Shown: positions 3,570 to 22,313 of the stretch, piece by piece
Numbering within the stretch: the stretch's first letter is position 1
Layout of the letters: every line of letters begins with the position of its first letter
Assembly (NCBI GenBank): GCA_028277945.1
Contig: JANQFH010000008.1
Span: forward strand, 195,442 to 259,441
Reading direction: 5' to 3'
Source of the DNA: Oligoflexia bacterium
GTDB lineage: Bacteria > Bdellovibrionota_G > JANQFH01
DNA: 64,000 bases
The notes under the pieces: generated by a model
The model's input: only the letters and a program-made list of their open reading frames with translations
The model's database searches: none
What the model was told of the DNA's origin: nothing
Program-made: the position numbers and the translations under genes

Positions 3570-3578
3570 GACGCTCTT

Positions 3579-5727: not shown

Positions 5728-5736
5728 TCTCCAAAC

Positions 5737-6675: not shown

Positions 6676-6688
6676 GGCCTACAGTGAG

Positions 6689-8248: not shown

Positions 8249-8458
8249 GTTGTGTACTTCTAACTTAGGTTTTAGTGTTCTCTCTAATAATATGAAGAAC
8301 TTCTGTCAACGGGTACTTTTCATCAGCAACTCAACCAACACAAATGTGTTTCATTTTTAGACAAGTTGTTTCGTAAGACGACACTTAAATGATGGTTCAA
8401 TCTAGCTTCGAGAGCTTGACCCTGTCTATAAAATAAGCAATCATCCTGGGTTAAGAGT

Positions 8459-9051
8459 ATGAGGCGATGGTTTTATGAGCTAACCATATTCGGAACCATC
8501 CTTACCAGTTTGAATGCCTATGCAGTGAGTGAGGAGTGTGCGGCCTTTTTCCAGAACAACAACATTTATCCTGGTGCCGATTGTGAATTGTCGTGTGCAA
8601 CTTTGCCGACATCAATGGCTACGTTTGGTTGTCCCGCTCAGTGTCGCGAATACTGTCGTTCCCGGACATTAGCGACAGAACCCTCCAAATCGAATGAGCC
8701 TTTAGATAGCTTGCCAATGGATGAAGAAGAGCGTCGGCAGCGCCTTAAGGAGTTTGCTATAGAAGAGTTCAAGAGTGAAAACCGATGCAACGCCTTGGCC
8801 AATATTGTCGATGAAGCCTCCAGGCTCATTGGGAGTGAGGAGAACCCCTCAAAGACCATGCTTGAGGATCTTAAAGAGGTGCTAATTGGAGAAGGGCTTC
8901 ATGAAGGTCGAGGGAAGGGGCCATATTTTGCTGGTAATGTCTATGGCGCTTTGGTGACGTCCTGAATGATGACAACTATGACACATTAGGGGATAGGATC
9001 AGAACAGCGATTGGAGATGAGAGTTGTCAGAAACTAGAGGAAATCAAATGA
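8459..9051 (+). pseudogene. secreted Cys-rich protein, apparently frameshifted near its 3' end
   Basis: ORF 8459-8965 has a signal peptide and many Cys, and stops at TGA 8963-8965. Another frame is open from 8938 and encodes LNDDNYDTLGDRIRTAIGDESCQKLEEIK* (8962-9051). That sequence aligns with the C-terminus of the paralog at 1-83. Its stop overlaps the ATG of the next gene (ATGA at 9048-9051). Confidence 0.5.
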
Positions 9052-9431
9052 AAAGGCTTTGGAAGGTCGCCAAGGTATTACTCTTCATTTTCTTGTTCCT
9101 AGTCGTGGTGGGTTCAGGTTTTGTAGTCGCTCTGATTATGACTAAAGATCAGGAACTCAAGGTTGCTCAGGAGGCGGCCTATGAGGTAGTGACCTCCATT
9201 ATGTCCTCCAAAGATAGACAACGTGAAGTTGGAATGCCTCAAGGTGTGGAACTTATCGACACGGATCCGGAAGATATTGATATATTATTTAGAACTTGGC
9301 AGTTTTGGTACGATTGCAAGCCTGAGGGCGTGCTTTTGTTGGAGTTTTTTCCCAAACGGGGGATTTGGATTTTTCATTTGTTCAACAGGAAAAAAGACCT
9401 AGAACTGATTACAGCAAAATACATAAAGTGA
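9048..9431 (+). CDS. small single-pass membrane protein (paralog of 98..481)
   Basis: ATG at 9048 gives MKRLWKVAKVLLFIFLFLVVVG.., matching the start of the paralog. The track start at 9024 is a TTG extension. Confidence 0.6.
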   Translation: MKRLWKVAKVLLFIFLFLVVVGSGFVVALIMTKDQELKVAQEAAYEVVTSIMSSKDRQREVGMPQGVELIDTDPEDIDILFRTWQFWYDCKPEGVLLLEFFPKRGIWIFHLFNRKKDLELITAKYIK

Positions 9432-9716
9432 TGGCACTGAGCAAAAGAGACAAAAACAAGATTAAAAGCGTCTAGCTACCTATCTACCTCGTACAACCAT
9501 ATTCTTGGCAATTTTGGTGGAGAATTTCTGGCTTGATCACACCAACTTCAAATTTACTTAATAATTTTAGATGGTTATTATTAAATCTGTTATTCCGGCA
9601 AAAATATCGGCATATTTCTCTTAAAAAATAACTTCCCAAATTTATAACCATTTGTTATAAAATGTTATATATGAAAAATTCATCGGTAATAATACCGGCA
9701 TTTTCGACTTAAATCC

Positions 9717-10907
9717 ATGTCTCATCCAAAACCAGAGTCTCCAGCGCTTATGGAGCCGATGCTTCCGGCTGCAGGACAATCCTCGCAACTCGAGGATCTT
9801 GCTGTTGATCTCATTGCCAAGGGCAGTAGCTTTCACAGCCTTTTGCCCACGAACCTACAGACAGGCATTGCGGATCTGGTGCGCTCGATGAACTGCTATT
9901 ACAGCAATCTCATCGAAGATCATCACACCCACCCCCGCGACATTGATCGCGCTCTAGCAGATGATTTCTCTACTGAACCAAAAAAGAGAGCCTTACAATT
10001 GGAAGCCAAAGCGCACATTGAAGTACAACGCCTCATGGATCATGGAGGCATCCCCGCCAATCCAACGACGTCTACATTTATTACCTGGATCCACCGGAAG
10101 TTTTGTGAGCGTTTGCCCGACAATCTTCTATGGACTGAAAACCCTGACAGTGGAGAACGTCTTCGCATCCACGCAGGCAAGCTCAGACAAACTAATGTCA
10201 TAGTTGGTCGCCACCTTGCGCCTGAGGCAAAAAATCTCCACGCTTTTCTGGCTCGCTTTCAAGAGGCCTATGATCTACAGCGCCTTTCCAAAGTGCAACA
10301 GATCCTCGCAGTCGCTGCGTCACATCATCGGTTACTGTGGATCCACCCTTTTCTCGACGGCAACGGTAGGGTGGCACGTCTCTTCTCGCATGCGCTCTTG
10401 TTGCATCTGGGTATTGGCAGTTCCCTTTGGTCAGTATCACGCGGTCTAGCCCGTAGCGTCGACGACTATAAAAGCATGCTCATGCAGGCAGATCAGCTGC
10501 GCCGCAATGACCATGATGGTCGTGGTACGCTCTCCCAACAAGGGCTGATGGATTTTTGTGGCTTTTTCTTGGCCACATGTCTTGATCAAATTGAGTTCAT
10601 GCGCTCTCTGTTAGAACCTAAAGAGCTTCTAAATCGTGTTGCTGTTTATACCGAAGAAGAGATGCGTGCCAAGAGACTTCCAAAAGGGAGTCTGGCGCTA
10701 TTGCGACATGCCATACTGGTTGGCGAGATTGCGCGCCATGAGCTCTCTGGCATTACGGGTTACAAAGAACGTCAGGCTCGTAATGTATTAAAAGAACTAT
10801 TAGCTAAAAAACTCCTTTACTCAGCAACTCCACGTGGCCGCGTGCGTCTGGGTTTTCCTATTGAGGTGGTAGAGCGCTGGTTCCCAACCCTCTACCCTGG
10901 AGTCTAA
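9717..10907 (+). CDS. Fic family protein (AMPylase-type)
   Basis: Canonical Fic motif HPFLDGNGRVARLFSHALL. About 400 aa with a C-terminal wHTH-like tail. No adjacent small antitoxin gene seen. Confidence 0.9.
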   Translation: MSHPKPESPALMEPMLPAAGQSSQLEDLAVDLIAKGSSFHSLLPTNLQTGIADLVRSMNCYYSNLIEDHHTHPRDIDRALADDFSTEPKKRALQLEAKAHIEVQRLMDHGGIPANPTTSTFITWIHRKFCERLPDNLLWTENPDSGERLRIHAGKLRQTNVIVGRHLAPEAKNLHAFLARFQEAYDLQRLSKVQQILAVAASHHRLLWIHPFLDGNGRVARLFSHALLLHLGIGSSLWSVSRGLARSVDDYKSMLMQADQLRRNDHDGRGTLSQQGLMDFCGFFLATCLDQIEFMRSLLEPKELLNRVAVYTEEEMRAKRLPKGSLALLRHAILVGEIARHELSGITGYKERQARNVLKELLAKKLLYSATPRGRVRLGFPIEVVERWFPTLYPGV

Positions 10908-11045
10908 TAAGCGCTCTGTCACGATAACAAAAGGATAGACCACCCATAGTGTCCCCAGGGGCCGATTTGCAACTAGCCAGCGCATGCGATAGACTAGATC
11001 TAAGCTAAGACAACGAGATTTTTGAACATCTTCGCGGAGATACGC

Positions 11046-11987
11046 ATGCAACCAACCCCCCGTTTGTGGGTTTTGCCTCTCTTGATACTCTCTCTTCTAG
11101 CCAGTCCACTGATGGCCCAGGGGCCCGTAGAGGAGCTGGAGAAACAGCAAGAGGATACCCGTCTCTACCTTGAGACCATCGACATGCTCAAGGACAACTC
11201 CCTGGAAAATCAAATCAAAGGCTGGGAGAAGTTCCTCAAGGAGCATCCCGACAACTACTTTCGTGATGAGATCGAGGCCAACCTCGATAACATGAAGGCA
11301 CGCCAGGAGATCATTGCCAGAGAGCAGGAAGAGCAGGATTCTCGACGCTACTTTGCAACCGTGGAGCGGGCCGCAGACAAACCCGTAAGCGAGCAGATCC
11401 CTATCTGGGAGAAGTACCTCAAAGAGAACCCAGACTCACTCTTTGCCAACGAGGCACGCACCACCCTAAACCGCCTGCGTCTACAAGCAGGGCCTGCTGT
11501 GGCACCAGCCCAACAACCCCTGCCATCATCGCCACCCCCTCCAGCGCCCCTACCAACAGCTCCGCCAACCGTCGAGACCACCGCCAAAGATCTGACCCTG
11601 CAGGATGATGGGCTGCTCGATCCCAATCGCGCCCTCTTTCTCGCCTCCGTCCCAGGTCTCATTGTTCCAGGCCTTGGCCACTTTTATGCCGGCAACTATA
11701 CTATTGGCGGAGTCCTCGTCGGCCTACGCGTAGGTGGCTTAGCCCTCATGGGCTATGGTTTCTTTGATGAAAACCGCTTAGCGCTGATTATCCCCGGCAG
11801 CCTGGTGGCTGGCTTCTCCTACGTTCTCGATGTGGTCATGGCGCCCATCCAGGTACGCAACCGCAATCACAGCCTCGAGCCACTCCCACCCTTAGAGGGG
11901 AGCCAACTCAGACCTCTCGACCAAGATCACCCCTTCGCCAAGGCAGAGCAGGAGCTGCTCACCCTCACTGTGGGCTTCTCCTTTTAG
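11046..11987 (+). CDS. secreted repeat protein with Pro-rich linker and C-terminal membrane segments
   Basis: Start at MQPTPRLWVLPLLILSLLASPLMAQG (signal peptide). Duplicated W(E)K(F/Y)LKE(H/N)PD.. repeats. The linker PLPSSPPPPAPLPTAPP is followed by hydrophobic GLGHFYAGNYTIGGVLVGL. Confidence 0.55.
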   Translation: MQPTPRLWVLPLLILSLLASPLMAQGPVEELEKQQEDTRLYLETIDMLKDNSLENQIKGWEKFLKEHPDNYFRDEIEANLDNMKARQEIIAREQEEQDSRRYFATVERAADKPVSEQIPIWEKYLKENPDSLFANEARTTLNRLRLQAGPAVAPAQQPLPSSPPPPAPLPTAPPTVETTAKDLTLQDDGLLDPNRALFLASVPGLIVPGLGHFYAGNYTIGGVLVGLRVGGLALMGYGFFDENRLALIIPGSLVAGFSYVLDVVMAPIQVRNRNHSLEPLPPLEGSQLRPLDQDHPFAKAEQELLTLTVGFSF

Positions 11988-12329
11988 GCTGGATAAAACG
12001 GGACTTTGATCTAGTCTGACCTAAGGTTTCTGGCCCCATACTTGGAAGAGCCACGGCACACTCATAAGAGTGCGGGTATCCTGAGACAAAGTCTTTAAGG
12101 TTGTAACGATTGCAAGGATACTTCTTCATCGTGATATTTGTCGAACTCAAGCAAAGCCCTGCCTTCGCCCTGTAATCAAAACAAGTTGGTCGTATAGTGA
12201 CCATTTTGTTTCCATAAAAGACAATCAGCATTCTATCCAACGTTAGGATCAAGACAAAGTTAATCACTCCACTCCCTTCGTGAAGGCTAACAACTGATTA
12301 CTCTTCGGCTAATAATGGTCTGGCTTTCT

Positions 12330-12345
12330 TGGCACACAATTTGCT
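12330..12345 (+). promoter_or_regulatory. sigma-54 (-24/-12) type promoter upstream of short ORF 12393
   Basis: TGGCACacaatTTGCT. GG at 12331-12332 and GC at 12343-12344 are separated by 10 nt, matching TGGCAC-N5-TTGCW. It lies about 48 nt upstream of ATG 12393. Confidence 0.6.
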
Positions 12346-12392
12346 TTTTTTTAAGCCAGCCACGTCACCTTCAATTTGTTATGGGAGGAACT

Positions 12393-12515
12393 ATGAAGGA
12401 CGCAAAAAAGACAAAACGTCAACAGTCTAAGTCGTCAAAAAAAATCTTTTCCCCTATTAAGGACAAGCTGTTAGATACAGCTATGTCGACTATCACATAT
12501 GATGTAACTGGCTAA
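12393..12515 (+). CDS. candidate precursor/signal peptide, 40 aa (cassette D)
   Basis: MKDAKKTKRQQSKSSKKIFSPIKDKLLDTAMSTITYDVTG. RBS GGGAGG at 12383-12388, 4 nt before the ATG. A sigma-54-type promoter lies upstream. The HExxH gene starts 93 nt downstream on the same strand. Confidence 0.5.
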   Translation: MKDAKKTKRQQSKSSKKIFSPIKDKLLDTAMSTITYDVTG

Positions 12516-12608
12516 GTAGGCAACGAAAATAAGACAACGAAGCTAAGTATGGGAGTGGATGGTCTCTGCTCCCGTACCTTCAAGCCAGGCATATGAGAGA
12601 TCGATTTA

Positions 12609-13601
12609 ATGTGTTTAGAATATCATTCCGCCCCAGGAAAATTATCACCTTTTGTGCTTCGAAAAAATTTTCAAGGATATTTGGTTAAAAGCGCTATTTC
12701 CTACATTAATGAAGTTCAGTCGTCTTTAAAATTGGACCTCAACCACATAATATTAAAGTTATCCAGCCTAGATCAAAACCAGAAATTTTCCCCCTCTATC
12801 TATACAGGGTATCACATACTACAGTCAGCTTACGATAGTCAGAATAAAACCCTTGTGTTGGATGCCCTTCATTTCTTGGTTCAGTATTGCAATGATAAAG
12901 GTGGTAACAATAACATTGATTATTCAACTATACTTACAGAACCATATGAGAATCATTGTATAGACACTTTTCGAAAATCGAACCCTAAAGATGACTTCGG
13001 CGTGCCAGCTTTTGACGTTGTAGAAATGTTTCCAATACTGAATGTTAAAAAATATAAAATTCCTCCGTCTAGCCTTAAAAAGGCTGAAGAAATATTATCG
13101 CTGATTGATATGGATTTATGGAAAGAGTATCAAGCTTACGTTTCTATCTTAAAGATCTTCCAAGGAAAGAGTCTTCAAGGTGGAACAAGTCTCAACTGTT
13201 TTGGTACGGTATACCTGAGAATGCCTGAGGATTCCGAACATCCGGTACTCTACTTCCTGGAACATATTGTGCATGAAACCTCCCATTTGCATCTCTATGC
13301 ATTAGCCGGAGACAGAGACCTTGTTAGAAACGATTCAGCCTCTGTTTATGACTCGCCAATACGACACGACAAACGGCCCATTATTGGGGTATTTCACGCT
13401 ACGTTTGTTTTGGCTCGCTTAGTCCGTATATTTCAGCGCTACCTAAATCATTTTAGCAATGACTATCCAGAAGGAACTACCTTCTACAACAGAATAAGCA
13501 GAGACTTCAAAACCGGATACTCTATATTGAAAGAAAATTGTCTTTTTACAACGCTTGGGCGACAAATTTTTGATTCGTTAGATGATTGTACGAAAATTTG
13601 A
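12609..13601 (+). CDS. HExxH-motif protein (RiPP-associated HEXXH-domain type; possible peptide hydroxylase or peptidase) (cassette D)
   Basis: HIVHETSHLHLY is followed by KRPIIGVFHATFVLAR. The same two blocks occur in paralog 26946-27779 (HELGHHYL .. KRPLFGIYHAAFAEA). Confidence 0.6.
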   Translation: MCLEYHSAPGKLSPFVLRKNFQGYLVKSAISYINEVQSSLKLDLNHIILKLSSLDQNQKFSPSIYTGYHILQSAYDSQNKTLVLDALHFLVQYCNDKGGNNNIDYSTILTEPYENHCIDTFRKSNPKDDFGVPAFDVVEMFPILNVKKYKIPPSSLKKAEEILSLIDMDLWKEYQAYVSILKIFQGKSLQGGTSLNCFGTVYLRMPEDSEHPVLYFLEHIVHETSHLHLYALAGDRDLVRNDSASVYDSPIRHDKRPIIGVFHATFVLARLVRIFQRYLNHFSNDYPEGTTFYNRISRDFKTGYSILKENCLFTTLGRQIFDSLDDCTKI

Positions 13602-14607
13602 AAGGAACGACCCTCTTGGAAATACCGCGTTTGGCAAACTACCTATCAAAAAACTGGTACGTGCTGCAGTCTTCCCTGATCGCTTTTTTGTAGGCAAAGC
13701 AGGTATCAAGCTTGTCAATTGGCAAGGAAATAATCAGTACCTTTGTGGCTTCTCATGCAGCAGACAACCGGCTATTGCCGAAAATGTAGCTGTTTTCGAA
13801 CTCTGTGAACGCTTGACAGCAAAGTATGAATTTCAATCTTTTCTGGGCACGAATATGAATACTTTCAGAGCGTTTACCTGGCCCGATGGGAATCCAGCTA
13901 GAGTGACAAAATCTCAATTATTCCTTGGTCCAAATCCATTTTCCCAATTTGGACAAGAGGCAACTGGCCTAGGTTTTGGCCCTGATTATCATCAAGCATT
14001 AAATCACGCTATTCTTGAATTGTTGGAGAGGCACATCTGCGCAGGTCTTTGGTATGAAGCAAAATATAGGCTATGCAAGGCAATCGACAGAGTATCTTTA
14101 GACTCCTTTGACATTTTCTACTATACCCTCCACAGACCGAAGATACCATTTGTTCTAGCCATTATATACTCGAATGAACTTGAGGTGCTTTCAGTCGGCC
14201 ATGCAATAAGATCTACGTTTGAGGAGGCGAAGGAAAAATCCTACTCCGAAGCAGTGATGCTGTTAGATTGTGTTCTCCACAAGGATAACGGTATCTGTAC
14301 CAATTTAAGAACTAAAAATCGTTTGCTTTCTCAAAGAGGTCCCTTAGCAAAAGAACGATTCCAACAATTTAACGATCTGACAGTAAACGTGGCAGCAGCA
14401 AAAAATATCCTAAGCCGATATTTTTCAATATCTGAGATTACTGCGGCGGTGCTTGGCACTAATGACGATATCGAAATTATTCAACTTTTCCGGGATAGAA
14501 ACTTCTGGTCTCTACGAGCACTTTCGAAGAAGGTGGCTACCTTGGCAGAACGTCGACAATCGAATCGATATTCAGAAAAACAAAAGATTCTGGACCCTTA
14601 TTGCTAA
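13582..14607 (+). CDS. minimal YcaO-domain protein (cassette D)
   Basis: ExxER motifs VAVFELCERL and ATGLGFGPDYHQALNHAILELLERH. Overlaps the HExxH gene by 20 nt. Paralog of 5737-6675. Confidence 0.6.
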   Translation: MIVRKFERNDPLGNTAFGKLPIKKLVRAAVFPDRFFVGKAGIKLVNWQGNNQYLCGFSCSRQPAIAENVAVFELCERLTAKYEFQSFLGTNMNTFRAFTWPDGNPARVTKSQLFLGPNPFSQFGQEATGLGFGPDYHQALNHAILELLERHICAGLWYEAKYRLCKAIDRVSLDSFDIFYYTLHRPKIPFVLAIIYSNELEVLSVGHAIRSTFEEAKEKSYSEAVMLLDCVLHKDNGICTNLRTKNRLLSQRGPLAKERFQQFNDLTVNVAAAKNILSRYFSISEITAAVLGTNDDIEIIQLFRDRNFWSLRALSKKVATLAERRQSNRYSEKQKILDPYC

Positions 14608-14619
14608 GATCAGCATACA

Positions 14620-15888
14620 TTAGAGCTTGTCGGAAATAAGGCTATATCTTTTGGCCGTGCTCCACAACAACAGTGTTGAAGCAAGCCCCACAATGCCAGA
14701 AAGACCAATTAACTTGCCTATGGCTGGATCGGCTTTCATAAGTACAGTGAAGATTACCATGGACAGTATATACCCGACTCTGCCATAAGCCTGTCCTTTC
14801 GATATTGAGTAGGTAAACCGATCTTGGCTAAATTGTGACTGAATCTTGTTTGAAAACATTATAAGGGAAACACCGTACAGGATACCGATAATGATCATTA
14901 GGGCAATAAAGGAGTCTCGAGAAGTTCCTCCAGCAAGAATTAGTGTTAGACTTAGAGCTACAAGAAGAAGAATCAATTTATGAATACTACGGAAGTACAC
15001 TTGAAATGCATTTGGGAAGAGAGTAATTGCGGTTAATGCTAGGAGGAATCCAAAGTAGATAGACGATGGACCTGAAAGTATTCGTGTAATTCCAGAAAGA
15101 TGTTTTGATGCTGCTAGCGATTGCATAAGAATAAAGGCAACCGCTCCAAAAGCTAAATTTGTCAAAAATAGAAACTGATTGTTCCATTTTAGCCAATGGT
15201 CGTCTTTTAAATCTATGATACGTTGATTTGCATTGTTCTGAAAAACATCAACCGATACTTGTTGCATACTGGTTATCTTTTTCATAAAGGATAGTAAAAG
15301 GAAGAGTCCAAGTAGAGAAATAAGGTAGGTTATGGAGTTTACGATGCAGACGACAGACCATCCACTAGTTAGCAGCAACGCTGCGACTGAAGCACTTACC
15401 ATGTTTACTCCACGATTTGCAGCATTCGAGAACGCTAAAGCTCTAGGTAGAGGGAAAAAATTATTCCTATCCAGGAAGATAGGAATAATGGTGGTCAGTT
15501 GTCTTGTTATAAGTGATAATGTACGCATTACTATCATCAGAGCGAGAAATAAGCCGTAAAATAGGTGCCTTGGAAGATATGATATTAAGATAGGCAGAAT
15601 GGTCAGTCCCATTAGGATAAATTCGATACATAGGGCGTAAAAAATTCTATCCTTGATATTTATAATGCGATCAATGTATTTTCCAAGAAAGGGTGCTAAA
15701 CCAATTTGCAGTATGGCATCTGTAGAGAACAGAATCCCCGATAACAATATTCCCGAACTATCGTCAAGAAAGAGTGCAACTGCGAAGAAAAGTAAAAGGC
15801 TATCCCCAAGTTTGGAAATAATCGATAAAGAAAGATACCCCCAAATAGGCGCCTTTGTCATGTTGTGGATTGGCTTTTCTCTATCCAT
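14620..15888 (-). CDS. MFS-type transporter (cassette D)
   Basis: About 12 predicted hydrophobic helices. Loop LGKYIDRIINIKDRI is in the MFS motif-A position. The start is uncertain (15888 or M10 at 15861). Confidence 0.7.
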   Translation of the reverse strand: MDREKPIHNMTKAPIWGYLSLSIISKLGDSLLLFFAVALFLDDSSGILLSGILFSTDAILQIGLAPFLGKYIDRIINIKDRIFYALCIEFILMGLTILPILISYLPRHLFYGLFLALMIVMRTLSLITRQLTTIIPIFLDRNNFFPLPRALAFSNAANRGVNMVSASVAALLLTSGWSVVCIVNSITYLISLLGLFLLLSFMKKITSMQQVSVDVFQNNANQRIIDLKDDHWLKWNNQFLFLTNLAFGAVAFILMQSLAASKHLSGITRILSGPSSIYFGFLLALTAITLFPNAFQVYFRSIHKLILLLVALSLTLILAGGTSRDSFIALMIIIGILYGVSLIMFSNKIQSQFSQDRFTYSISKGQAYGRVGYILSMVIFTVLMKADPAIGKLIGLSGIVGLASTLLLWSTAKRYSLISDKL

Positions 15889-15902
15889 ATACTATCATCA
15901 AC

Positions 15903-16034
15903 AAGGCAAGAATTAGGCCAATAGGAATGTCCGGTATTCCAATGGGTTGTAGATAGGTAACGCTTAGGAACAGTATGTCTGATATAGGACGCTCTGTTCA
16001 CCCTGAAGACAGTTTGTTTGTATTGCGAACAATT
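15903..16034. repeat. about 130-nt conserved intergenic element, copy 1 (copy 2 at 28016..28146)
   Basis: Ungapped alignment by eye gives roughly 80% identity with 28016-28146. Best-conserved blocks are TTAGGCCAAT, GTCTGATATA and TGAAGACAGTTTGTTTGTATT.CGAACAAT. ORFs over the two copies lie on different strands, so the element is not coding. Confidence 0.7.
15905..15920 (-). promoter_or_regulatory. sigma-54-like -24/-12 motif inside repeat copy 1, facing MFS gene 14620..15888
   Basis: Minus strand TGGCCTaattcTTGCC. GG at 15919-15918 and GC at 15907-15906 are 10 nt apart. It is very close to ATG 15888, so the transcript would be nearly leaderless unless the start is M10. Confidence 0.35.
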
Positions 16035-16149
16035 GAGCCGTTGCCGGTCTGCCATCATGGAACCTCGCATCTGCCTTCAAGGTAAAGGTATACTCATCTC
16101 CTGCATCAGAGAGCAGCCCATTTTCTTGACCACAAACCAACGAACGCAT
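16033..16149 (-). pseudogene. 5' remnant of a family-5 solute-binding protein gene
   Basis: MRSLVCGQENGLLSDAGDEYTFTLKADARFHDGRPATAQ.. matches SSWKVSDAGDEYTFTLNSDARFHDGSPVTARD of 43334-44740. This includes a 31-nt identical run, gatgcaggagatgagtatacctttaccttga. Homology breaks at about 16034, where repeat copy 1 begins. Confidence 0.7.
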
Positions 16150-17643
16150 CTAGCGTACCCACAAGACAGATGTATCATGTCTCGTTAGATTGATACTTTC
16201 AGGAAGCATGCCCGCAGAAGCACGATCATCGTGTACCAGGGTCTCAATAGCTCGGCCATCCGCAGATTCACCATGAAAAGCAAAGTAGCCACACCAATAG
16301 CTTAGTGGATCTGCCATGGCATTCAAGTAGGAATAGACATCTATGAGTTCAGAACGTAGCTGAGCAATCTCCGTTTCTGTTTCTCCAAGACCAAAACTCA
16401 GTTCTTCGATAGTCTCTTCCAAGTCGTGAGATGACCGCAAGTCGCCGCTGAAGCAGGTCGCAATAGCAGAAAGTCTTTCCTTCTCTAACCGGCTCAGCTT
16501 TCCTTCGTCGTGAAGTACTTGAACTTTTTGTCTAAACTCCTGTGGATTTTTCTCGATTTCCTCTACAGTAAAACTAATCGACTCTCTCTTATTTTCCAAA
16601 ATTGACAGGCCTCTCAGCGCGTCGATCAGTGTATCTATGACTACTACATCCTCGCCTTTCAAATCCTTGCGAAATTTTTCGAGACTTTGGACAGCCAATT
16701 CGACTGTCGCAAGACTTTCTCTAAAGTAGCTCCCCAGGGCCCTTCGAACAGTCATAGCATCTCCTATTAAAGAGACGAGTTCTCTTGAAGAGTCAGCAAT
16801 AGCCTCTAATCTTCTCAACCTCTGGCCTATTTCCTGACAAGGTTCGAGCAAAATTTTTCTTCTAGCACCTACTCTCAATATCAAGAGAGGAACATGATAT
16901 GGCCGATAGAACATCACAACTTCTGATAGGTCTGTCCTCGACCGCTCATCATATGAGCCCGTAATCGGATGAGGGTAGTATCGCCCTCGAAAATAATTAT
17001 CCACCACTCTTCTAATCAGTTCCCCTTTGAGACGAATTTCCAAAATTCCAGGCTCATCGATTTCAAAAGCTAGTTGAACAAACTCTGGACCAAGTTCAAA
17101 TTGCCTACCCATATCTGCATTTCTGTACATACCCCTATCGGCAAACATAATAGGTTCGCTTAGGGCAAAGTGGGAAACCCCATAATAAGCTTCCCTTTTC
17201 CTATCCCATCTCTTCAAGCTCTTCCAGGTAGTTAGAATGGTCTTTGAGTTTAAACGAACATCAACGTTTACCTTTAATCCGTCTAAACTCCTTTCCAGAT
17301 CGGTTCTCTCACCTCGCCGTTCTTCAAAACTTGCTCCAACAAAATGTAGATCTAGCTCCAAGAGGTACGGCCCTGGGCGAATGATTTTCACTCCTGGGAA
17401 CCTTAGTTCTTTGTTGCCATCTATGATATCAGGATAGTCCGAAGATAGACTGGTAATAAATCTACCGTTTTCCATCCTCCCAAAGAGTCGAAAATTAGTA
17501 ATATCAGCGTAGCTTCCAATTCTAGGACCACGAACTCCATGATAAAAAGTATCTCCAGCCTCTGCAGCACGATCACATAGCGCTACTAGTGCAACCAGAG
17601 ACAATAGGAGCCAATGGTACTTTTGTGTCTTTAGAATTATCAT
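16150..17643 (-). CDS. secreted accessory protein 'Z' of toxin module 1 (paralog of 55970..57538)
   Basis: Signal peptide HWLLLSLVALVALCDRAAEA. The C-terminal helical half aligns with 55970-57538: EPCQEIGQRLRRLEAI vs EACTNLGDAENRLSWLETL, and EEIEKNPQEFRQKV vs AKIEKRPKAFRKTV. Confidence 0.7.
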   Translation of the reverse strand: MIILKTQKYHWLLLSLVALVALCDRAAEAGDTFYHGVRGPRIGSYADITNFRLFGRMENGRFITSLSSDYPDIIDGNKELRFPGVKIIRPGPYLLELDLHFVGASFEERRGERTDLERSLDGLKVNVDVRLNSKTILTTWKSLKRWDRKREAYYGVSHFALSEPIMFADRGMYRNADMGRQFELGPEFVQLAFEIDEPGILEIRLKGELIRRVVDNYFRGRYYPHPITGSYDERSRTDLSEVVMFYRPYHVPLLILRVGARRKILLEPCQEIGQRLRRLEAIADSSRELVSLIGDAMTVRRALGSYFRESLATVELAVQSLEKFRKDLKGEDVVVIDTLIDALRGLSILENKRESISFTVEEIEKNPQEFRQKVQVLHDEGKLSRLEKERLSAIATCFSGDLRSSHDLEETIEELSFGLGETETEIAQLRSELIDVYSYLNAMADPLSYWCGYFAFHGESADGRAIETLVHDDRASAGMLPESINLTRHDTSVLWVR

Positions 17644-17648
17644 GCTAT

Positions 17649-18392
17649 TCAGTCTTTTCGCGGTGAAAAAATTACGCCCCCAAGCGTTTCAAAAGGCCTT
17701 CCTATATCTACATCTACCTTCAATACATCGCGGGTCTTGATTCTTGCCCAAAGCGTAGTCGGATCCACACGCCTTTCCTCTTCCATCCAAAACTCGTACT
17801 CGCGAACGAAGAATGCTGGAGAGGTAATATCCGCATCAAAAGCGTTCGGATTAAGATAGTAAATTCTAGGTACCCTATGTTGATGGACCCAATCTATGTC
17901 AGGTTTCTCACTACGAGGCCACTTGTGTGTTTCATAGTTGACCTCATCCACACGTGTTCCGTCGTAGCGGCGACTGTGTTTGAATGTTGCCTTGAGCTTC
18001 CGATTCTCTAGTGCTGATTTTATAATTTTGACTTTCCCAACTCCTGCATAGTGAAAAAATAGAATTACAAGTGCCGTTCGGCCTGAATCGATGTCCTGTA
18101 GAAGTTTCTGAGGAAGAACGGAATCTCTAATTTTATCCGTACCTTCCCTACTTAGGAAGTCAAAAAACCAAATTAGGAAGTCTGATCGAACGAAAAAGAA
18201 AAGTCGATCACCAACGGGATCATGAAATACAAGCGGTTCTTTTATAATCTCCTCCGCCTCGTTCTCGGAAAGCTTCACTCGATGAAAATATTTTGATTCC
18301 TTAATCACTTTGTCCGATGGAAAGTAAGAATCAGCATACAACACTGGCGTCACCACTATAAGAACACTCAAACACAACGTAAAGCGATACAA
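17649..18392 (-). CDS. secreted protein, unknown function (toxin module 1)
   Basis: ORF track. Signal peptide FTLCLSVLIVVTPVLYA. I recognised no motif. Confidence 0.6.
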   Translation of the reverse strand: MYRFTLCLSVLIVVTPVLYADSYFPSDKVIKESKYFHRVKLSENEAEEIIKEPLVFHDPVGDRLFFFVRSDFLIWFFDFLSREGTDKIRDSVLPQKLLQDIDSGRTALVILFFHYAGVGKVKIIKSALENRKLKATFKHSRRYDGTRVDEVNYETHKWPRSEKPDIDWVHQHRVPRIYYLNPNAFDADITSPAFFVREYEFWMEEERRVDPTTLWARIKTRDVLKVDVDIGRPFETLGGVIFSPRKD

Positions 18393-18395
18393 CTT

Positions 18396-19142
18396 CTACT
18401 CTCCAAAACCCTTCACAAAAAACTTCTCATCGATCAACCGCAGACCCTCATAGACCTCATACTTGATCAAGGCACCCTTGGTATCGCGGTAGAGCCCTTT
18501 GCGCACTTGTCTTGGTTTTTTGTAAAGGCCCTCAACCTTGCTCAAAAAGGCTGCCAGTTCCTCTCTACTAAAAGGGCCATGCCGTTCCCAATCGAGCCAA
18601 TCAGGGCCAATGGAGACCACCACCGATAGCTCACGGCTGCCAGGTTTTACTCCACCAAAGAGCTTCTTTGCCATCCTCTGACTGCCAAGCGTCAGGAGGT
18701 GCCAGTTGCGGCTTTCAAAATGCTCTCGCTTGTTCTGCTGATCCATAAACATAAAATAGACGCCTTCGCTCCAGGAGCTACGATCCAGATTGACGCCTTT
18801 TTTGAAGCGCTCTAAAAATGTTTTTAAATCGGCAGGTTGATCATGCCAATGCCGTATGATCCTTTTGATAAAAGACCAGGTTGAGATGACAGACATGCCC
18901 TCCTCATCTTGCGACTGATCCAGAGAGTCGAGTTTTTCTAATTCATAACCTCTAAACAGTTCCGAACCTGTATCAGGCTCTGTTACCAGCAGCAGAGCAC
19001 CATCTTTAAGTTCCACAGTATCTCCAAACTCTATAGGTCTTTCGATATCCTCAGGAACTCCAGGGATATCAATCACTGTATCTCCCTGCTGTGCAAAGGG
19101 AGAGTCTGGATGGGGGGGTCGTTTTTCTCTCTCACGCATCAC
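18396..19142 (-). CDS. cytoplasmic protein, candidate immunity protein for the RES-domain toxin
   Basis: No signal peptide. Its start overlaps the toxin stop by 4 nt (19139-19142), the usual toxin-immunity coupling. No recognisable motif. Confidence 0.5.
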   Translation of the reverse strand: MMREREKRPPHPDSPFAQQGDTVIDIPGVPEDIERPIEFGDTVELKDGALLLVTEPDTGSELFRGYELEKLDSLDQSQDEEGMSVISTWSFIKRIIRHWHDQPADLKTFLERFKKGVNLDRSSWSEGVYFMFMDQQNKREHFESRNWHLLTLGSQRMAKKLFGGVKPGSRELSVVVSIGPDWLDWERHGPFSREELAAFLSKVEGLYKKPRQVRKGLYRDTKGALIKYEVYEGLRLIDEKFFVKGFGE

Positions 19143-20923
19143 TCTAGGGCCTCAAAAAGAACGACGTTAAAGCCATCTGGATTTCTTGCCGAGGGTACGA
19201 CAATACCACGATAGTGCAGCCGCGCCAATTCTCCTATTATTTGTGTTATTGAGTAATCCTCAGAGATCAAAGCTTCAGGAGCTATATTTAATAGCTCCCT
19301 GACACTTGGTTCATTAAGATCGAGCATGTTGTCGAGTGTGACATAGCGGCTTCTTGTTTCAATCACCCCCTTGACACCATGGGCTCGCATTTCCGCGGCG
19401 ATGGTCTGCCGATCGCCGCTCATGTAAAGCGCGCTTCTTCCCGGCGCTGAATAGCGATGGTTGGCGGCAATATTACCCTGCGGTATTTTCCACGAACCTG
19501 CTCGGTAAACATCACCTCTGTATTTACTTCCCTTGACAACACCTTGAACCAGCTTTTTGGTGGTATCAGGCCCCAAAGCTTGGCTCGCCCTTATCACCGC
19601 AGGCAGATGCTGCTGATCAAAGAGCTTTCTTGCCAAGCCACCACCACCGCGCCCTAGCAAACTGGTGGTCCCTCGGACCATGACCGTGCCTGACAGGACC
19701 ATAGGCACCATCATGGAGACAACTGTCTCTAAAGCCATCTCAAGCGGCAAGCTCGCCTCGACAACTCCAGTTGACGAATCCTCTTGTAGTGCCCACAAAT
19801 GGTAGTCTGCTGCCGCCATTTTGAGTGCTCCTGACAAGAACTCGCCGTCTCGGATATCTTGCACTCCCTCAATCATTAAATAGGCGGCATCTATAAGATG
19901 TGGCAGATCTGGCAGGGTTAAGGCATGATCGAGGGTAATCTCCACATGTTGCCAGATGTGTTGGGAGAGCCTCTCACCTAGATCGCGCTCTAACAGCGCC
20001 AACTCATCGAAGGTCTCAACACGGATGCGCGCCATGGAGCTGTCTGCTTCCAAATGGAGTCGACCTTTGGCCGTTGATTGAGCGCGTTCTGCTCGGTCAA
20101 TGAGTTCGTCTAATGTCTCCTGTATCCAGCGATGTCGTATGAGATCTCGCATGCTGCGAAGCTCGTGAACCCGCCGTGAGAATGCCGCGTAGCCATAGGC
20201 AACCACCTCCTTACTTGAAGCCCGTTCCACAGCCGCCAGGGCAACATCGGTGGAGGTGGCCGTGAGCCCCAGAAATAGTGGCAATCCATGTCTGTTTTCA
20301 GGAAGTGGCAACTGAGCTTGCTGTTGAAGTTGCACAAAAAGAGAGGAGTTGTGGATCATGTCACTAGCGGAACTGTGAGAAGCGAGATCGGAACCACCCC
20401 TTTCGTGGAGGGTGCGAATGTCGAGGCCGCTTGCAGATGATTCATCTCGAAGCTGATCATCTTGAGCTTGCTCTGCAGAGAGGCTTAGATGTTTGTTACT
20501 CTCTGCAACTGCAGTGTTGGCTTGAAGTAGGCTGAGGCCACGTTGCAACCCTGTAAGGTACTGAACTCTACGCCGAGCTTCCACATCACTGTGAGTCGGT
20601 GCTGAGCCTTCTTCATCCTCATCATCAAATCCACCGATCTCTCCTCTCGGGCTATCAAAGAAAGGGTCAAATCCTTCATCTTCTGTTTTGTCTTTGGGTT
20701 TTTGAGAGGAAACGATAACAATAGGCGTGTCAAAAACAATATGGACGTTGCCATCGGAGTCAACGGTCACATTTCCTGGCTCTGTGGTGTAGTCGTGCTC
20801 TCTTTCCTGAGCTGATTCAGTTTGTCCTGCATCATCTTGTGCAACAAGCTCTCTCTGCAACGGCGAAAAAAGACAAATCGTCGCGATCAATAAATAAAGC
20901 AGGCTTTTACATGAAATTTTCAT
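19139..20923 (-). CDS. Sec-signal polymorphic toxin with C-terminal RES domain
   Basis: Signal peptide LLYLLIATICLFSPL. The C-terminus NHRYSAPGRSALYMSGDRQTIAAEMRAH .. YRGIVVPSARNPDGFNVVLF fits the RES (Arg-Glu-Ser) pattern. Its overall build is similar to 52634-54766. Confidence 0.75.
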   Translation of the reverse strand: MKISCKSLLYLLIATICLFSPLQRELVAQDDAGQTESAQEREHDYTTEPGNVTVDSDGNVHIVFDTPIVIVSSQKPKDKTEDEGFDPFFDSPRGEIGGFDDEDEEGSAPTHSDVEARRRVQYLTGLQRGLSLLQANTAVAESNKHLSLSAEQAQDDQLRDESSASGLDIRTLHERGGSDLASHSSASDMIHNSSLFVQLQQQAQLPLPENRHGLPLFLGLTATSTDVALAAVERASSKEVVAYGYAAFSRRVHELRSMRDLIRHRWIQETLDELIDRAERAQSTAKGRLHLEADSSMARIRVETFDELALLERDLGERLSQHIWQHVEITLDHALTLPDLPHLIDAAYLMIEGVQDIRDGEFLSGALKMAAADYHLWALQEDSSTGVVEASLPLEMALETVVSMMVPMVLSGTVMVRGTTSLLGRGGGGLARKLFDQQHLPAVIRASQALGPDTTKKLVQGVVKGSKYRGDVYRAGSWKIPQGNIAANHRYSAPGRSALYMSGDRQTIAAEMRAHGVKGVIETRSRYVTLDNMLDLNEPSVRELLNIAPEALISEDYSITQIIGELARLHYRGIVVPSARNPDGFNVVLFEALE

Positions 20924-22077
20924 TTTGCCAGGCTCAGAATCAACTGTAATAGAAATGTGCCGTCCCCCTCCAAGGCTTTGGCGATCTCCAACAAGAGTTC
21001 AAGCTCTTTTGCCTTTTCAGTATCTCCTTGCGCCTTCAAAGCGCTGATTCTTTTCTCAGCCTCTGCAACTGGATTGAATCCCTTGACAATACCGGCAATT
21101 CTCTCGATATCCTCTTGACTATGAGCAACAAGTACTTCCAGGTCTCCTTTCAGCTCAGCATCGCTCAACTGTGGTAACACCTCCTCCCGGATCATGTGCG
21201 TTGCTGTAGACCACGTGAAAATGGCTTCTAATGCGGCAAAGAAATCTCGATTGACCAAAACCTCTTTTTGAACCTCAAGCTTCAACGAGGAGAAGAGATC
21301 GGAAATGTCGAAAAGAAAATCAATCCGTTGAAAATCAGCAAAGTATTGTTCCTTGAGCTCCTTATAAATCGCCGCTGACAGTTCAGCGGGTGCAGCGGCA
21401 AGATAGGAGGCAAGCTGATTGTCACTGCGATCGAGTTTTCGCAGCAGAACATCAACCGCCTGTACGAGCCTATCCCCAGTCTCCAAAGCTTCTTTAAAAC
21501 CAATAATGACCTTGCGGTCCTCTTCTCGAATCCGCCGTTCCACTTCCCGAAATCCTTCTAAGTAGAGAGGATCTAATCGGTTACCAGGCGGAGGTATCCG
21601 TTCATCGATGTCTTCTCGGGTTAGCTCTGGAATAACCGCTGATAGACCGGAAGTCGCCGACAGGGCGACCTGTCGAGAGCCTGCAAGCAGGTTTCTCGCT
21701 GCATCAATGTGCGAGCGGACTTGAAAGGCGAGCGACACAGCCTGACGTATCTCTTCTCTAGAGGATGCTGTTTTAACGGCGTTGACTTTGGCAAAGGGAG
21801 CCTCCAACCCTTCTTTGGTACGGCGAAATTCGTTAAGGGCAGCCGTTAGTCGACGCGTTGACCTCGAGGCCCTTGCATAAAGACCCCGATAGTGCTTATG
21901 CGCTGCGGTGCGTCCCTCACTCTTAACGGTAGCGCTCCTGGTCTGCTCGTATTTAAGCTGGAGACGCCGCAGCTCACCTTCCAGTTCCTCTACCGACTGC
22001 GCAAAGGCAGGTGAAAGAACAAAAAGCGAGATCAGCAACGATTTTAAGACCGACATGGGTAAGTATTTAAAGCACAT
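20920..22077 (-). CDS. secreted coiled-coil accessory protein 'X' of toxin module 1 (paralog of 54768..55964)
   Basis: Signal peptide ends ..SPAFAQSVEELEGE. The paralog has ..SLSQAQSVEEMARE. It is helical and charged throughout. Overlaps the toxin start by 4 nt. The likely start is MSVLKSLL (22056). Confidence 0.7.
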   Translation of the reverse strand: MCFKYLPMSVLKSLLISLFVLSPAFAQSVEELEGELRRLQLKYEQTRSATVKSEGRTAAHKHYRGLYARASRSTRRLTAALNEFRRTKEGLEAPFAKVNAVKTASSREEIRQAVSLAFQVRSHIDAARNLLAGSRQVALSATSGLSAVIPELTREDIDERIPPPGNRLDPLYLEGFREVERRIREEDRKVIIGFKEALETGDRLVQAVDVLLRKLDRSDNQLASYLAAAPAELSAAIYKELKEQYFADFQRIDFLFDISDLFSSLKLEVQKEVLVNRDFFAALEAIFTWSTATHMIREEVLPQLSDAELKGDLEVLVAHSQEDIERIAGIVKGFNPVAEAEKRISALKAQGDTEKAKELELLLEIAKALEGDGTFLLQLILSLAK

Positions 22078-22313
22078 TTAATGCCATCGAGCTGAGAGTT
22101 CAACTTTTTAAACAAAGTTCGTACCTTCTGAAACAAACTAGCCACCACAAGAACTGCTGCCACGCGTTTCAAGAACGACCACTTTGTCCATATAAGAAAC
22201 AAACCGTTCACGATCAAATCAGTCGTCGAAAAGCCTTCTTGTTCTTGGTGATGGCTACCGGGACGGTTCTGTGCACCAGCCCATCCGGTCCAGACTTCAC
22301 CGCTCTAAACTCT

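Follow-up and report, generated by a model that had tools for sequence, protein, structure and literature searches.

The 64-kb stretch of DNA analysed here (the window) carries a group of four genes, cassette D (12330–15918), encoding a 40-aa peptide, an HExxH protein, a YcaO protein and an MFS transporter, all four of which are intact and full length (4/4; Table 1). A first-pass annotation of positions 12330–16149 had listed a σ54 promoter, a 40-aa ORF, HExxH, YcaO and MFS genes and an SBP fragment, and all of these features are present in the sequence. The region forms a low-GC island amid toxin-antitoxin genes (Fic, RES, HipA, PIN).

Table 1. Features of cassette D and related elements in the window.
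Feature	Position	Strand	Remarks
Terminator-like hairpin TGGTCGTATAGTGACCA with T-run	12187–12203	+	closes upstream gene; left cassette edge
σ54-type promoter, -24/-12 element TGGCACacaatTTGCT	12330–12345	+	47 nt before precursor ATG
Shine-Dalgarno GGGAGG	12384–12389	+	upstream of ATG at 12393
Precursor peptide gene, 40 aa	12393–12515	+	annotated NCBI protein P0165
13-bp stem-loop without U-tail	12547–12577	+	between precursor and enzyme genes; z = -2.2, weak evidence
Predicted αKG-HExxH peptide β-hydroxylase, 330 aa	12609–13601	+	TIGR04267; H222-E-T-S-H226
Minimal stand-alone YcaO, 341 aa	13582–14607	+	PF02624; 20-nt overlap with HExxH gene
MFS transporter	14620–15888	-	convergent with YcaO gene; inverted relative to orthologues
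Putative σ54-like -24/-12 element TGGCCTAATTCTTGCC	15903–15918	-	15–30 nt before MFS start
131-nt promoter module	15903–16033	-	TGT-N11-ACA and other inverted repeats upstream of σ54-like element
SBP_bac_5 relic, ~38 codons	16033–16146	-	matches SBP residues ~43–81; SBP_bac_5 5.7e-6
Second promoter-module copy	28015–28145	-	upstream of cassette B
Cassette B	candidate precursor 27818–27922	-	also HExxH no. 2, MFS, SBP, HK (all - strand)
SBP genes of the window	at 6689, 24097, 37483, 43334

The σ54-type element in front of the peptide gene is the one exact match to TGGCAC-N5-TTGCW in the 64 kb, compared with 0.09 expected, and at least one match occurred in 9 of 100 shuffled sequences. This promoter is not conserved in relatives of the cassette and is therefore specific to the Oligoflexia source genome. 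The 64-kb window lacks a gene for an enhancer-binding protein. The 40-mer has a basic N-terminus, with F-x-x-I-K-D-K-L-L as leader motif and T29-AMSTITYDVTG40 as core. The leader motif and the core TAMSTIT(Y/W) recur in peptides encoded directly upstream of homologous HExxH genes from unrelated metagenomes. Alignment of the precursor with these peptides showed leader and core to be common to them, with an identical core motif in the closest relatives, while the basic N-terminus of the leader differs from all relatives. The precursor genes of loci L006 and L007 differ by 12 synonymous and 6 non-synonymous codons, and their upstream DNA is not alignable; the gene is under purifying selection in relatives. 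The short ORF, for which the ribosome-binding site had been noted before, is a real precursor peptide gene. The stem-loop downstream of it may serve transcript stabilisation or attenuation.

The protein encoded next scored 66.4 bits with TIGR04267 (cut-off of 40; 3e-18), and its HExxH motif reads HETSH (residues 222–226). In a comparison of 24 HExxH homologues, H222, E223, H226, R252, D254, P257, G260 and H263 were invariant. The HExxH family comprises 1480 representatives, and its profile matched the ChlH structure 8s5f (2.9e-15). The protein is therefore predicted to be an αKG-HExxH peptide β-hydroxylase related to ChlH. Enzymes of this type introduce β-hydroxyls into His, Asp, Phe, Gln and Pro (PMC13060819, PMC12636437) and are also able to remove C-terminal residues oxidatively (PMC12636437).

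The YcaO gene, which is predicted to be translationally coupled to the hydroxylase gene through the overlap, encodes a protein (YcaO-D) scoring 37.2 bits with PF02624 (cut-off of 25.7). Residues E73, E76, E146, E149 and E223 are invariant among 25 homologues, and the conserved acidic residues are taken as putative ligands of ATP and Mg2+. YcaO-D ends with ILDPYC, and the C-terminal DP(F/Y)C is conserved and subfamily-specific. All 37 significant PDB matches of the predicted structure were YcaO enzymes (37/37). The nearest were thioamide-forming YcaOs of methanogens, with a TM score of about 0.54 and 11–14% identity, and this fold match is therefore too distant for assigning the chemistry of YcaO-D; the peptidase-active MusD was also among the matches. 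With the TOMM cyclodehydratase model TIGR03604, YcaO-D reached 19.9 bits compared to a cut-off of 219. Azoline-forming YcaOs carry a C-terminal PxPxP motif, which YcaO-D lacks.

A YcaO gene directly 3' of an HExxH gene was found in about 35 fetched loci (about 30 distinct) from seven phyla, i.e., Chlamydiota, Bdellovibrionota, Actinomycetota, Pseudomonadota, Bacteroidota, Parcubacteria and Cyanobacteria. Peptide, HExxH, YcaO and MFS genes are syntenic with cassette D in L006, L007 and L095, which supports the earlier proposal that the 40-mer is the probable substrate of the adjacent HExxH and YcaO proteins. The order peptide-MFS-HExxH-YcaO occurs in L112/L169, L114 and L118. The HExxH-YcaO family is thus widespread and joins two known enzyme types, and a description of this pairing was found in none of the searchable papers. 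The MFS protein scored 24.1 bits with the Pfam model MFS_1, which is below the cut-off. It shares 29–32% identity with MFS genes flanking HExxH-YcaO in L006, L007, L009, L095 and L112–L119, shows no similarity to the remaining MFS genes in the window and is probably the cassette's own exporter. Gene content, synteny, conservation of catalytic residues, purifying selection on the precursor and the YcaO fold are the established part of this picture. Judged from its sequence, cassette D is quite probably a complete, self-contained RiPP cassette, consisting of precursor, αKG-HExxH hydroxylase, minimal YcaO and MFS exporter.

In relatives, the MFS gene lies on the same strand as the cassette, whereas it is inverted in cassette D. 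Its putative σ54-like element has the correct GG/GC spacing, with mismatches to TGGCAC-N5-TTGCW at 3 of 11 specified positions (8/12 when 12 positions are scored). The 131-nt module to which it belongs occurs twice in the window, the two copies being 80% identical without gaps, and the counterpart of the element in the other copy is TGGCCTAACTCTTGCT at 28015–28030. The module was probably duplicated from the region that precedes cassette B, or is common to both. This repeat, directly beside the SBP stump, had been missed by the first-pass annotation.

The SBP relic sits in a 61-aa ORF (15964–16149) whose start directly follows the stop codon of a 497-aa ORF. It had been described as a 5' fragment with a 31-nt identical run; the fragment is real, but it comes from the interior of the gene, near the N-terminus, and lacks both a true 5' end and a signal peptide, and the exact run is 33 nt long (16076–16108 = 43501–43533, opposite strand) within a 74-nt match of 84% identity. 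By amino acid identity, the SBP encoded at 43334 is closest (78%), followed by that of cassette B, while the SBPs of cassette A (34%) and, at the same level, cassette C (37483–39042) gave the two weakest matches. No other SBP remnant and, as stated before, no trace of an HK was found in 9000–22300. The relic proves recombination or deletion involving an SBP gene, but not that this SBP served cassette D. Together, relic and module are probably a scar left when paralogous cassettes of this genome recombined. Such recombination would have inverted the exporter gene and given it a new promoter; the exporter would therefore probably be under the same activator as cassette B.

The inverted exporter gene and the adjacent gene fragment could alternatively be signs that cassette D is a decaying remnant whose product is no longer made. 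The diverged N-terminus of the leader and the location among toxin-antitoxin genes would fit such decay. However, the four ORFs are of full length, the invariant catalytic residues are all kept in both enzymes, promoter, ribosome-binding site and predicted translational coupling are intact, the core motif is that of the closest relatives, and the MFS gene has gained a plausible promoter of its own. Decay is thus considered very improbable.

The first-pass annotation had regarded the locus as a producer-only half that had lost its receptor. Its gene set is indeed that of a producer, but this is normal for the HExxH-YcaO family: an SBP_bac_5 gene was adjacent in none of the approximately 30 distinct loci. 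The receptor-less state is therefore the ancestral, normal state of the cassette. With the relic reduced to about 38 codons fused to a cassette B-derived promoter module, loss of an own receptor by cassette D is weakly supported. Nevertheless, an own SBP-HK pair might have been deleted and the peptide be sensed in trans by one of three intact SBP-HK pairs. These SBP_bac_5-HK pairs, encoded by overlapping genes, lie beside peptide-modifying genes elsewhere in the window. A genuine SBP relic adjoins cassette D, the promoter module of cassette B is repeated in front of D's exporter gene, which fits co-regulation, and a σ54 promoter implies that an enhancer-binding protein responding to a signal is in control. 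Moreover, the D-type cassette of L169 follows directly 3' of three MFS-HK pairs, but these HKs share only about 25%, generic similarity with those of the window. The relic, being located upstream of the MFS promoter module, belonged to another transcription unit. Given this, the lack of a neighbouring SBP in all relatives and the missing HK trace, sensing in trans following receptor loss is deemed unlikely. Cassette A, which had been put forward as a possible partner, is not supported: the relic matches its SBP weakly, the module ties D to B, and YcaO-A, only 18% identical to YcaO-D, does not end in DP(F/Y)C. Thus, nothing points to cassette A, and regulatory cross-talk, if there is any, would involve cassette B or the 41–45 kb cassette.

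Regarding σ54 dependence, modified residues, chemistry, export and biological role of the self-contained cassette, we infer the following scheme. The σ54-dependent promoter would drive the precursor gene and then the two translationally coupled enzyme genes. The leader motif F-x-x-I-K-D/E-x-L-L would dock the 40-mer on both enzymes. With Fe(II), α-ketoglutarate and O2, the αKG-HExxH enzyme would β-hydroxylate at least one residue in the core TAMSTITYD, with Tyr36 and Asp37 as candidates. The minimal YcaO would use ATP to activate a backbone amide of the same core, most likely yielding an oxazoline, for which either a Ser/Thr side chain or the freshly installed β-hydroxyl would be used. The finished peptide would be exported by the MFS protein; no protease for leader removal is encoded in cassette D. 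The phenyloxazole of curacozole-type pathways is proposed to arise from Phe, which is β-hydroxylated to phenylserine and cyclodehydrated (PMC11575548). Many family cores, such as MLRPMQED, AVNMQED and SSQLMQGD, are without conserved Ser, Thr or Cys and keep a hydrophobic residue followed by Q/E/D/T. This pattern favours a YcaO that is dependent on the hydroxylase or one whose chemistry is not azoline formation. In the clade to which cassette D belongs, Thr takes the place of the Q/E/D conserved in the family. Since Thr already bears a β-hydroxyl, hydroxylation followed by cyclisation fails to explain why the hydroxylase is retained in this clade.

It is possible, if not the expected outcome, that in the same cassette the YcaO forms a backbone thioamide with sulfur from a donor whose gene lies elsewhere, or cleaves off the leader or a C-terminal follower as an ATP-dependent peptidase, while the hydroxylase works independently. 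The structural matches to thioamide-forming methanogen YcaOs and to MusD, the missing PxPxP motif and the missing protease gene are in line with this, as is the ability of αKG-HExxH enzymes to remove C-terminal residues oxidatively (PMC12636437). In addition, E. coli YcaO has been implicated in the backbone thioamide of ribosomal protein uL16 (PMC13063428). However, neither TfuA nor another sulfur-transfer gene was present among the annotated neighbours in the loci checked, the fold match is too distant to indicate chemistry, and the close, frequently overlapping arrangement of HExxH and YcaO genes in different phyla suggests a common target motif of the two enzymes.

Several known systems resemble the proposed self-contained cassette in part. 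As in peptide quorum sensing by an extracellular binding protein and an HK, the window combines three SBP_bac_5-HK pairs with peptide-modifying genes, and σ54-type promoters precede its candidate precursor genes; in contrast to such circuits, cassette D and its relatives have neither an SBP nor an HK of their own. Like the minimal YcaOs, i.e., the McrA-thioamidating enzymes of methanogens (6cib/6peu) and the bottromycin-type stand-alone enzymes, YcaO-D consists of one YcaO domain (about 340 aa) that has conserved acidic residues and is fused to neither an E1-like nor a peptide-binding domain. It differs from the methanogen enzymes by its low sequence identity, its DP(F/Y)C C-terminus, the lack of a nearby TfuA and its substrate, presumably a small precursor peptide instead of McrA. 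The YcaO fold is shared with the azol(in)e cyclodehydratases of linear azole peptides and cyanobactins (McbD, LynD/TruD, SagD; TIGR03604), and the Ser/Thr-rich MSTIT of the core could yield oxazolines as in azol(in)e peptides. Unlike these systems, cassette D encodes no E1-like/Ocin-ThiF partner and no dehydrogenase, YcaO-D has no PxPxP, and many cores of the family do not conserve Ser, Thr or Cys.

The αKG-HExxH β-hydroxylases (ChlH/ChlB of triceptides, BpmH, PflC/PosC, PesO; TIGR04267 / IPR026337) share the HExxH motif and the R-x-D-x-R-P ... G-x-x-H-A block with the cassette D enzyme, the gene of which likewise lies beside that of a short precursor with a C-terminal core. The match at profile level implies at most about 30% identity to any characterised member. 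In contrast to the known enzymes, the cassette D protein is stand-alone, has neither a radical-SAM fusion nor an MNIO partner and is paired with a YcaO. In the curacozole/YM-216391 pathways, hydroxylation falls to a P450 and to a canonical Fe/2OG enzyme in place of an HExxH protein, the cyclodehydratase of the corresponding step is not proven to be a YcaO, and the products are macrocyclic polyazoles; however, hydroxylation followed by cyclodehydration is the order proposed there (PMC11575548) as well as for cassette D.

Cassette D is predicted to be an intact RiPP cassette with a gene set complete for production and export. All features that the first-pass annotation had listed for it, i.e., the promoter, the 40-aa ORF, the HExxH and YcaO genes, the facing MFS gene and the piece of an SBP_bac_5 binding protein (SBP) gene, were found. 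The cassette is probably under σ54 control. The elements upstream of the precursor gene (-24 GG and -12 GC) show canonical spacing, and TGGCAC-N5-TTGCW was matched exactly once in the 64-kb window, compared to 0.09 matches expected (at least one match in 9 of 100 shuffles). When one mismatch to the σ54 consensus was allowed, 8 sites were found in the window, compared to 2.5 expected. The precursor promoter region has no further copy in the window, and scans of the window ORFs (64 kb) yielded no enhancer-binding protein. Overlap with the promoter and absence of a ribosome-binding site led to the rejection of a 66-aa ORF starting at 12315 as the precursor. The GC content was 0.39–0.41 across 12–16 kb versus 0.51–0.56 just upstream; low GC is also a feature of the remaining peptide cassettes in the window (islands of 0.38–0.43, background of about 0.50).

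Features of cassette D and related elements elsewhere in the window (HK, histidine kinase).
Feature	Position	Strand	Remarks
Terminator-like hairpin	12187–12203	+	Precedes promoter
σ54-type promoter TGGCACacaatTTGCT	12330–12345	+	Exact TGGCAC-N5-TTGCT, 47 nt before precursor ATG
Ribosome-binding site GGGAGG	12384–12389	+	Ahead of precursor ATG
40-aa ORF	12393–12515	+	Precursor, ATG at 12393
13-bp stem-loop without U-tail	12547–12577	+	Between 40-aa and 330-aa ORFs; z = -2.2
330-aa ORF (HExxH)	12609–13601	+	20-nt overlap with 341-aa ORF
341-aa ORF (YcaO)	13582–14607	+	
422-aa ORF (MFS)	14620–15888	-	Converges on YcaO gene
131-nt module, copy 1	15903–16033	-	One base from SBP stump; precedes cassette D exporter gene
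61-aa ORF with SBP_bac_5 match	15964–16149	-	Upstream of MFS gene
Cassette B second HExxH gene	26946–27779	-	Motif HELGH; followed by MFS, SBP and HK
Cassette B candidate precursor MAKSNESKKTVSFNFSFQSHRVLGAKLASIPTGS	27818–27922	-	AGGAG ribosome-binding site; upstream of second HExxH gene
131-nt module, copy 2	28015–28145	-	Upstream of cassette B; 80% identical to copy 1, ungapped
Candidate precursor MKKRRREYIDLDKLEKIVVIRGVTVGI	40175–40258	-	AGGAG ribosome-binding site; upstream of DUF4135 gene (39039–40130)
σ54-like element TAGCACGTTCCTTGCA	40351–40366		Near candidate precursor 40175–40258

The 40-aa ORF is conserved beside the modifying enzymes and shares leader and core with its relatives; thus, its designation as a precursor was upheld. 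It is also called as a gene by the NCBI annotation (P0165). The closest YcaO homologues (40–44% identity) sit on metagenomic contigs. In the relative loci L006 and L007, a 41-aa ORF and the HExxH, YcaO and MFS genes follow each other in this order on a single strand. Their peptides end in ...FAEIKEEVLATAMSTITWSIMPEPSK, that of a third relative in ...LATAMSTITYSIITEPSE and that of the window in ...FSPIKDKLLDTAMSTITYDVTG. The frame of this C-terminus is retained in the more distant cassettes L009 (IKEKVLETAITTDSADKERHQD), L118 (INDEALLKTASAPIDYSPFGK), L114 (...KTASAPIDYSPW) and L112 (IDDEKILKTSSGAIDLSNRPTIA). Since the peptide genes of L006 and L007 differ by 12 synonymous codons and by 6 non-synonymous ones, the latter conservative, and the DNA upstream is not alignable, the peptide ORF is under purifying selection. 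At pI 10 and a charge of +5.5, the window peptide is basic, unlike the acidic peptides of its relatives (pI 4–4.9), all of which have acidic leaders. This divergence is limited to the first 18 residues (12393–12449), which are rich in Lys, Arg and Ser; the conserved leader motif begins at Phe19. With a short precursor gene beside the enzymes and a conserved leader and core, cassette D qualifies as a RiPP cluster.

The 330-aa protein matched no Pfam family. It scored 66.4 bits against the NCBIfam model TIGR04267, 'aKG-HExxH-type peptide beta-hydroxylase' (cut-off of 40, E = 3e-18), its HExxH motif being HETSH (residues 222–226). Residues H222, E223, H226, R252, D254, P257, G260 and H263 were invariant in an alignment of 24 HExxH homologues, and the family profile matched the ChlH structure 8s5f at 2.9e-15 (positions 156–329). 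The protein is predicted to be an αKG-HExxH peptide β-hydroxylase homologous to the solved ChlH fold. An exhaustive HMMER scan with it returned 1480 cluster representatives at E ≤ 0.001, 52 of them at E ≤ 1e-30. Among HExxH and YcaO homologues, the next best are 37–44% identical to the window proteins.

The 341-aa protein matched PF02624 with 37.2 bits (gathering threshold of 25.7), the match being partial (residues 122–241). A sequence-only search against the PDB returned noise alone, and a profile plus a predicted structure was required. The AlphaFold2 model, built on a 4-sequence alignment, was of moderate quality (pLDDT 71, pTM 0.76). All 37 PDB matches at E ≤ 0.001 were YcaO enzymes (TM of about 0.54), led by the minimal methanogen YcaOs 6cib and 6peu and followed by LynD, McbD, E. 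coli YcaO and MusD. Thus, the protein is a member of the YcaO superfamily with, as modelled, the YcaO fold. Five glutamates (E73, E76, E146, E149 and E223), invariant among 25 YcaO sequences, may by analogy be assigned to the ATP/Mg2+ nucleotide site. A conserved x-D-P-(F/Y)-C-COOH terminates the sequences of the subfamily (last five columns of alignment A2; 14590–14604 in the window, where it reads DPYC).

A PxPxP C-terminus is one of the criteria for azoline-forming YcaOs. The protein does not conform to an azoline-forming TOMM/LAP cyclodehydratase, since it scored 19.9 bits against TIGR03604 (SagD-type cyclodehydratase; cut-off of 219), has the C-terminus DPYC and is without a partner gene: family profile scans of the genes neighbouring YcaO revealed no E1-like, Ocin-ThiF, dehydrogenase or protease gene. 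Nor does cassette D conform to a YcaO-TfuA thioamidation system, since an adjacent TfuA gene is absent; scans of the window ORFs gave no TfuA match, and none of the genes annotated in L006, L007 and L169 is a TfuA gene.

Altogether, 160 loci were retrieved by an HExxH profile and their ORFs were classified with jackhmmer. About 35 of the 160 (about 30 distinct) carried a subfamily YcaO gene immediately after the HExxH gene, often with an overlap between the two. They derive from seven phyla: Chlamydiota, Bdellovibrionota, Actinomycetota (Nocardia, Pseudonocardiaceae and Streptomyces), Gamma-/Alphaproteobacteria (the former including Legionella and Motilimonas), Bacteroidota, Parcubacteria and one cyanobacterium. 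In each locus a short ORF lies upstream, its leader acidic and its C-terminal core short. Examples of the cores are ATMATMQGDAK, ATPATVQGYSKPQ, SSQLMQGD, RPTVQLYEQ, MLRPMQED, AVNMQED, AADTVQIS and AATCQTTNIQMA. Common to them is a hydrophobic residue ahead of Q/E/D/T, and every position of the window core can be aligned with them (TAMSTITYD versus ATMATMQGD). Since the window MFS is 29–32% identical to MFS proteins of the close clade and shows no relationship to any other MFS gene in the window, we regard it as the exporter of cassette D itself, in inverted orientation. No description of the HExxH and YcaO gene pair was found in the searchable literature, also when searched via IPR026337/TIGR04267 or hydroxylation plus oxazoline. 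The family is widespread and both enzyme types are already known, while the pairing with a minimal YcaO is seemingly undescribed. αKG-HExxH enzymes are currently under active characterisation. The pairing comes with its own precursor family and offers potential for new enzymology.

Variants of this organization were also seen. Some HExxH loci lack YcaO, e.g., the best genome match L009 (a Chlamydiales MAG with peptide, HExxH and MFS), L010, L013, L089 and L090 (Bacteroidota) and L027, L110 and L111 (Actinomycetota). The Bacteroidota and Actinomycetota cassettes without YcaO carry conserved cores of their own, F(I/V)TRSMET(Y/F)EGE(Y/V) and ARNVETWDGDN(G/A), which have a T-(Y/W)-(D/E) motif in common with the window core (T-Y-D). 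Four Streptomyces loci (L021, L022, L026 and L031; about 9900–13000) carry two tandem HExxH genes and then one YcaO gene, with precursors ending in SSQLMQ(G/S/A)D. A DUF6176 gene of about 110 aa (47–70% identity; named members from three phyla) lies beside five HExxH-YcaO cassettes (L006, 1839–2174; L007, 2–301; L011, 9130–9459; L017, 4697–5005; L029, 11881–12198), but the window has no copy. Possibly, it represents an accessory or immunity gene of the family that has gone unrecognised.

The SBP gene relic beside cassette D (the stump) is 84% identical over 74 nt, and 78% at the protein level, to the SBP gene at 43334–44740 on the opposite strand. The identical run reported between the two was recovered, with a length of 33 nt instead of 31 nt. 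The stump had also been taken for a 5' fragment; its approximately 38 codons (16033–16146, with gaps) lack a start and a signal peptide and represent the internal SBP residues 43–81 (approximately). In tblastn searches (E ≤ 5), no other SBP or HK trace was detected in 9000–22300, in agreement with the earlier remark that an HK is missing. With about 38 SBP codons left and no HK, cassette D was not assigned an SBP_bac_5-HK sensing module.

The 131-nt module occurs in the window in two copies only. Both end in a σ54-like element, TGGCCTAA(T/C)TCTTGC (-24/-12), which in cassette D lies 15 nt ahead of the first MFS ATG, and the module contains TGT-N11-ACA and GGAAT-N7-ATTCC inverted repeats. TGT-N11-ACA motifs are present upstream of both promoters, which could be due to chance. 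Three parts meet at the cassette D junction: the piece of an SBP gene, the duplicated promoter module and the exporter gene in inverted orientation. This arrangement records recombination between paralogous cassettes, and the stump shows the involvement of an SBP gene in this event. The duplication of the promoter module is an unusual and informative detail. Together with the SBP scar, it shows that the peptide cassettes of this genome exchange regulatory parts, which bears on the question of whether they form a peptide-signalling network.

Between cassette B and the stump (16150–22077, minus strand) lie five ORFs without family matches except for a RES-domain protein (19139–20923). The last of them (497 aa) is distantly related to a 522-aa ORF (55970–57538, minus strand), just upstream of which a near-consensus σ54 site, TGGCATTTTCTTTGCA, is located (57554–57569). 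The region is rich in toxin-type genes (Fic, RES, HipA and two PIN), located at 9717–10907, 19139–20923, 50651–51907, 58138–58536 and 62183–62596. The window also encodes SelB (488–2617) and a CHASE2-adenylate cyclase (29208–31196).

It had been proposed that cassette D is a producer-only half that has lost its receptor. None of the HExxH-YcaO relatives has an adjacent SBP gene, and the fragment lies outside the exporter transcription unit, upstream of the exporter promoter. Thus, the stump is no proof of a former receptor belonging to cassette D, and absence of a receptor is, as judged from these loci, normal for the family. The proposal reads too much into what is a genuine scar of recombination.

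Sensing of the cassette D peptide in trans by SBP-HK pairs of the genome is possible. The window holds three paralogous SBP_bac_5-HK pairs of overlapping or adjacent genes (3907–8248, 22314–25701 and 35658–39042), and in each of their kinases a periplasmic domain of about 120 aa lies between two transmembrane segments; no response regulator is encoded in the window. A signalling role is favored by L169 (31.7 kb), a contig that shares its cassette with L112 and in which three tandem MFS-HK pairs lie directly upstream of peptide-MFS-HExxH-YcaO. These pairs (286–13485, ENA ERZ27253378 k141_1843796; also in L112) are paralogous, with 32–51% identity between copies. Similarity of the L169 kinases to the window kinases is no more than generic: the L112/L169 kinases, about 25% identical over the generic kinase core but different in N-terminal architecture, were rejected as specific relatives. 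HK genes were also seen near the distant HExxH homologues L048, L059, L070 and L079, where the high-GC ORF maps are ambiguous. Cassette A had been named as an example of a possible sensing partner, with a complementary gene set that includes the only other YcaO. It is a poor candidate: the stump is 34% identical to its SBP, level with that of cassette C and among the two weakest matches, and YcaO-A is 18% identical to YcaO-D and lacks the DP(F/Y)C C-terminus. This second, divergent YcaO (5737–6675) lies between the SBP and HK of the 3907–8248 set. Since the promoter module is shared with cassette B, any cross-talk would rather point to cassette B.

YcaO enzymes use ATP for the activation of a backbone amide, which leads to azolines, thioamides, amidines or, in the case of MusD, peptide-bond cleavage. 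Given the tight gene coupling across phyla and the occurrence of Ser/Thr/Cys-free cores, both enzymes likely act on one short motif. Since several family cores are without conserved Ser, Thr or Cys, the family YcaO would either depend on the hydroxylase or perform unusual chemistry. Hydroxylation first, followed by cyclodehydration to an oxazoline, would be the most economical proposal. A serious rival is that YcaO-D performs thioamide or peptidase chemistry and forms no oxazoline. As to the hydroxylation-first proposal, the clade of the window itself has Thr at the conserved Q/E/D/T position, so that hydroxylation would be unneeded there; in this clade, the hydroxylase may act on Tyr/Trp36 or Asp37, and YcaO on Ser32, Thr33 or Thr35. 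We consider it improbable that the full reading holds jointly, i.e., that these loci form a new RiPP class in which a hydroxylase-made β-hydroxyl is cyclised by a minimal DP(F/Y)C-type YcaO, with oxazolines at residues other than Ser/Thr (Gln, Asp, Glu, Tyr), and that the cassette D product is a secreted, trans-sensed signal read by one SBP-HK pair and wired to the other cassettes via shared σ54 promoter modules.

Compared to known systems, the DP(F/Y)C of the YcaO-D subfamily stands where azoline-forming YcaOs have a proline-rich C-terminus. For αKG-HExxH enzymes, published work shows β-hydroxylation of His, Asp, Phe, Gln and Pro as well as an ability to remove a C-terminal tail by oxidative cleavage (PMC12636437, PMC13060819). 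The curacozole-type phenyloxazole has been proposed to arise from β-hydroxylated Phe, and provides a precedent for the order of hydroxylation and cyclisation proposed here for the HExxH-YcaO pair (PMC11575548).
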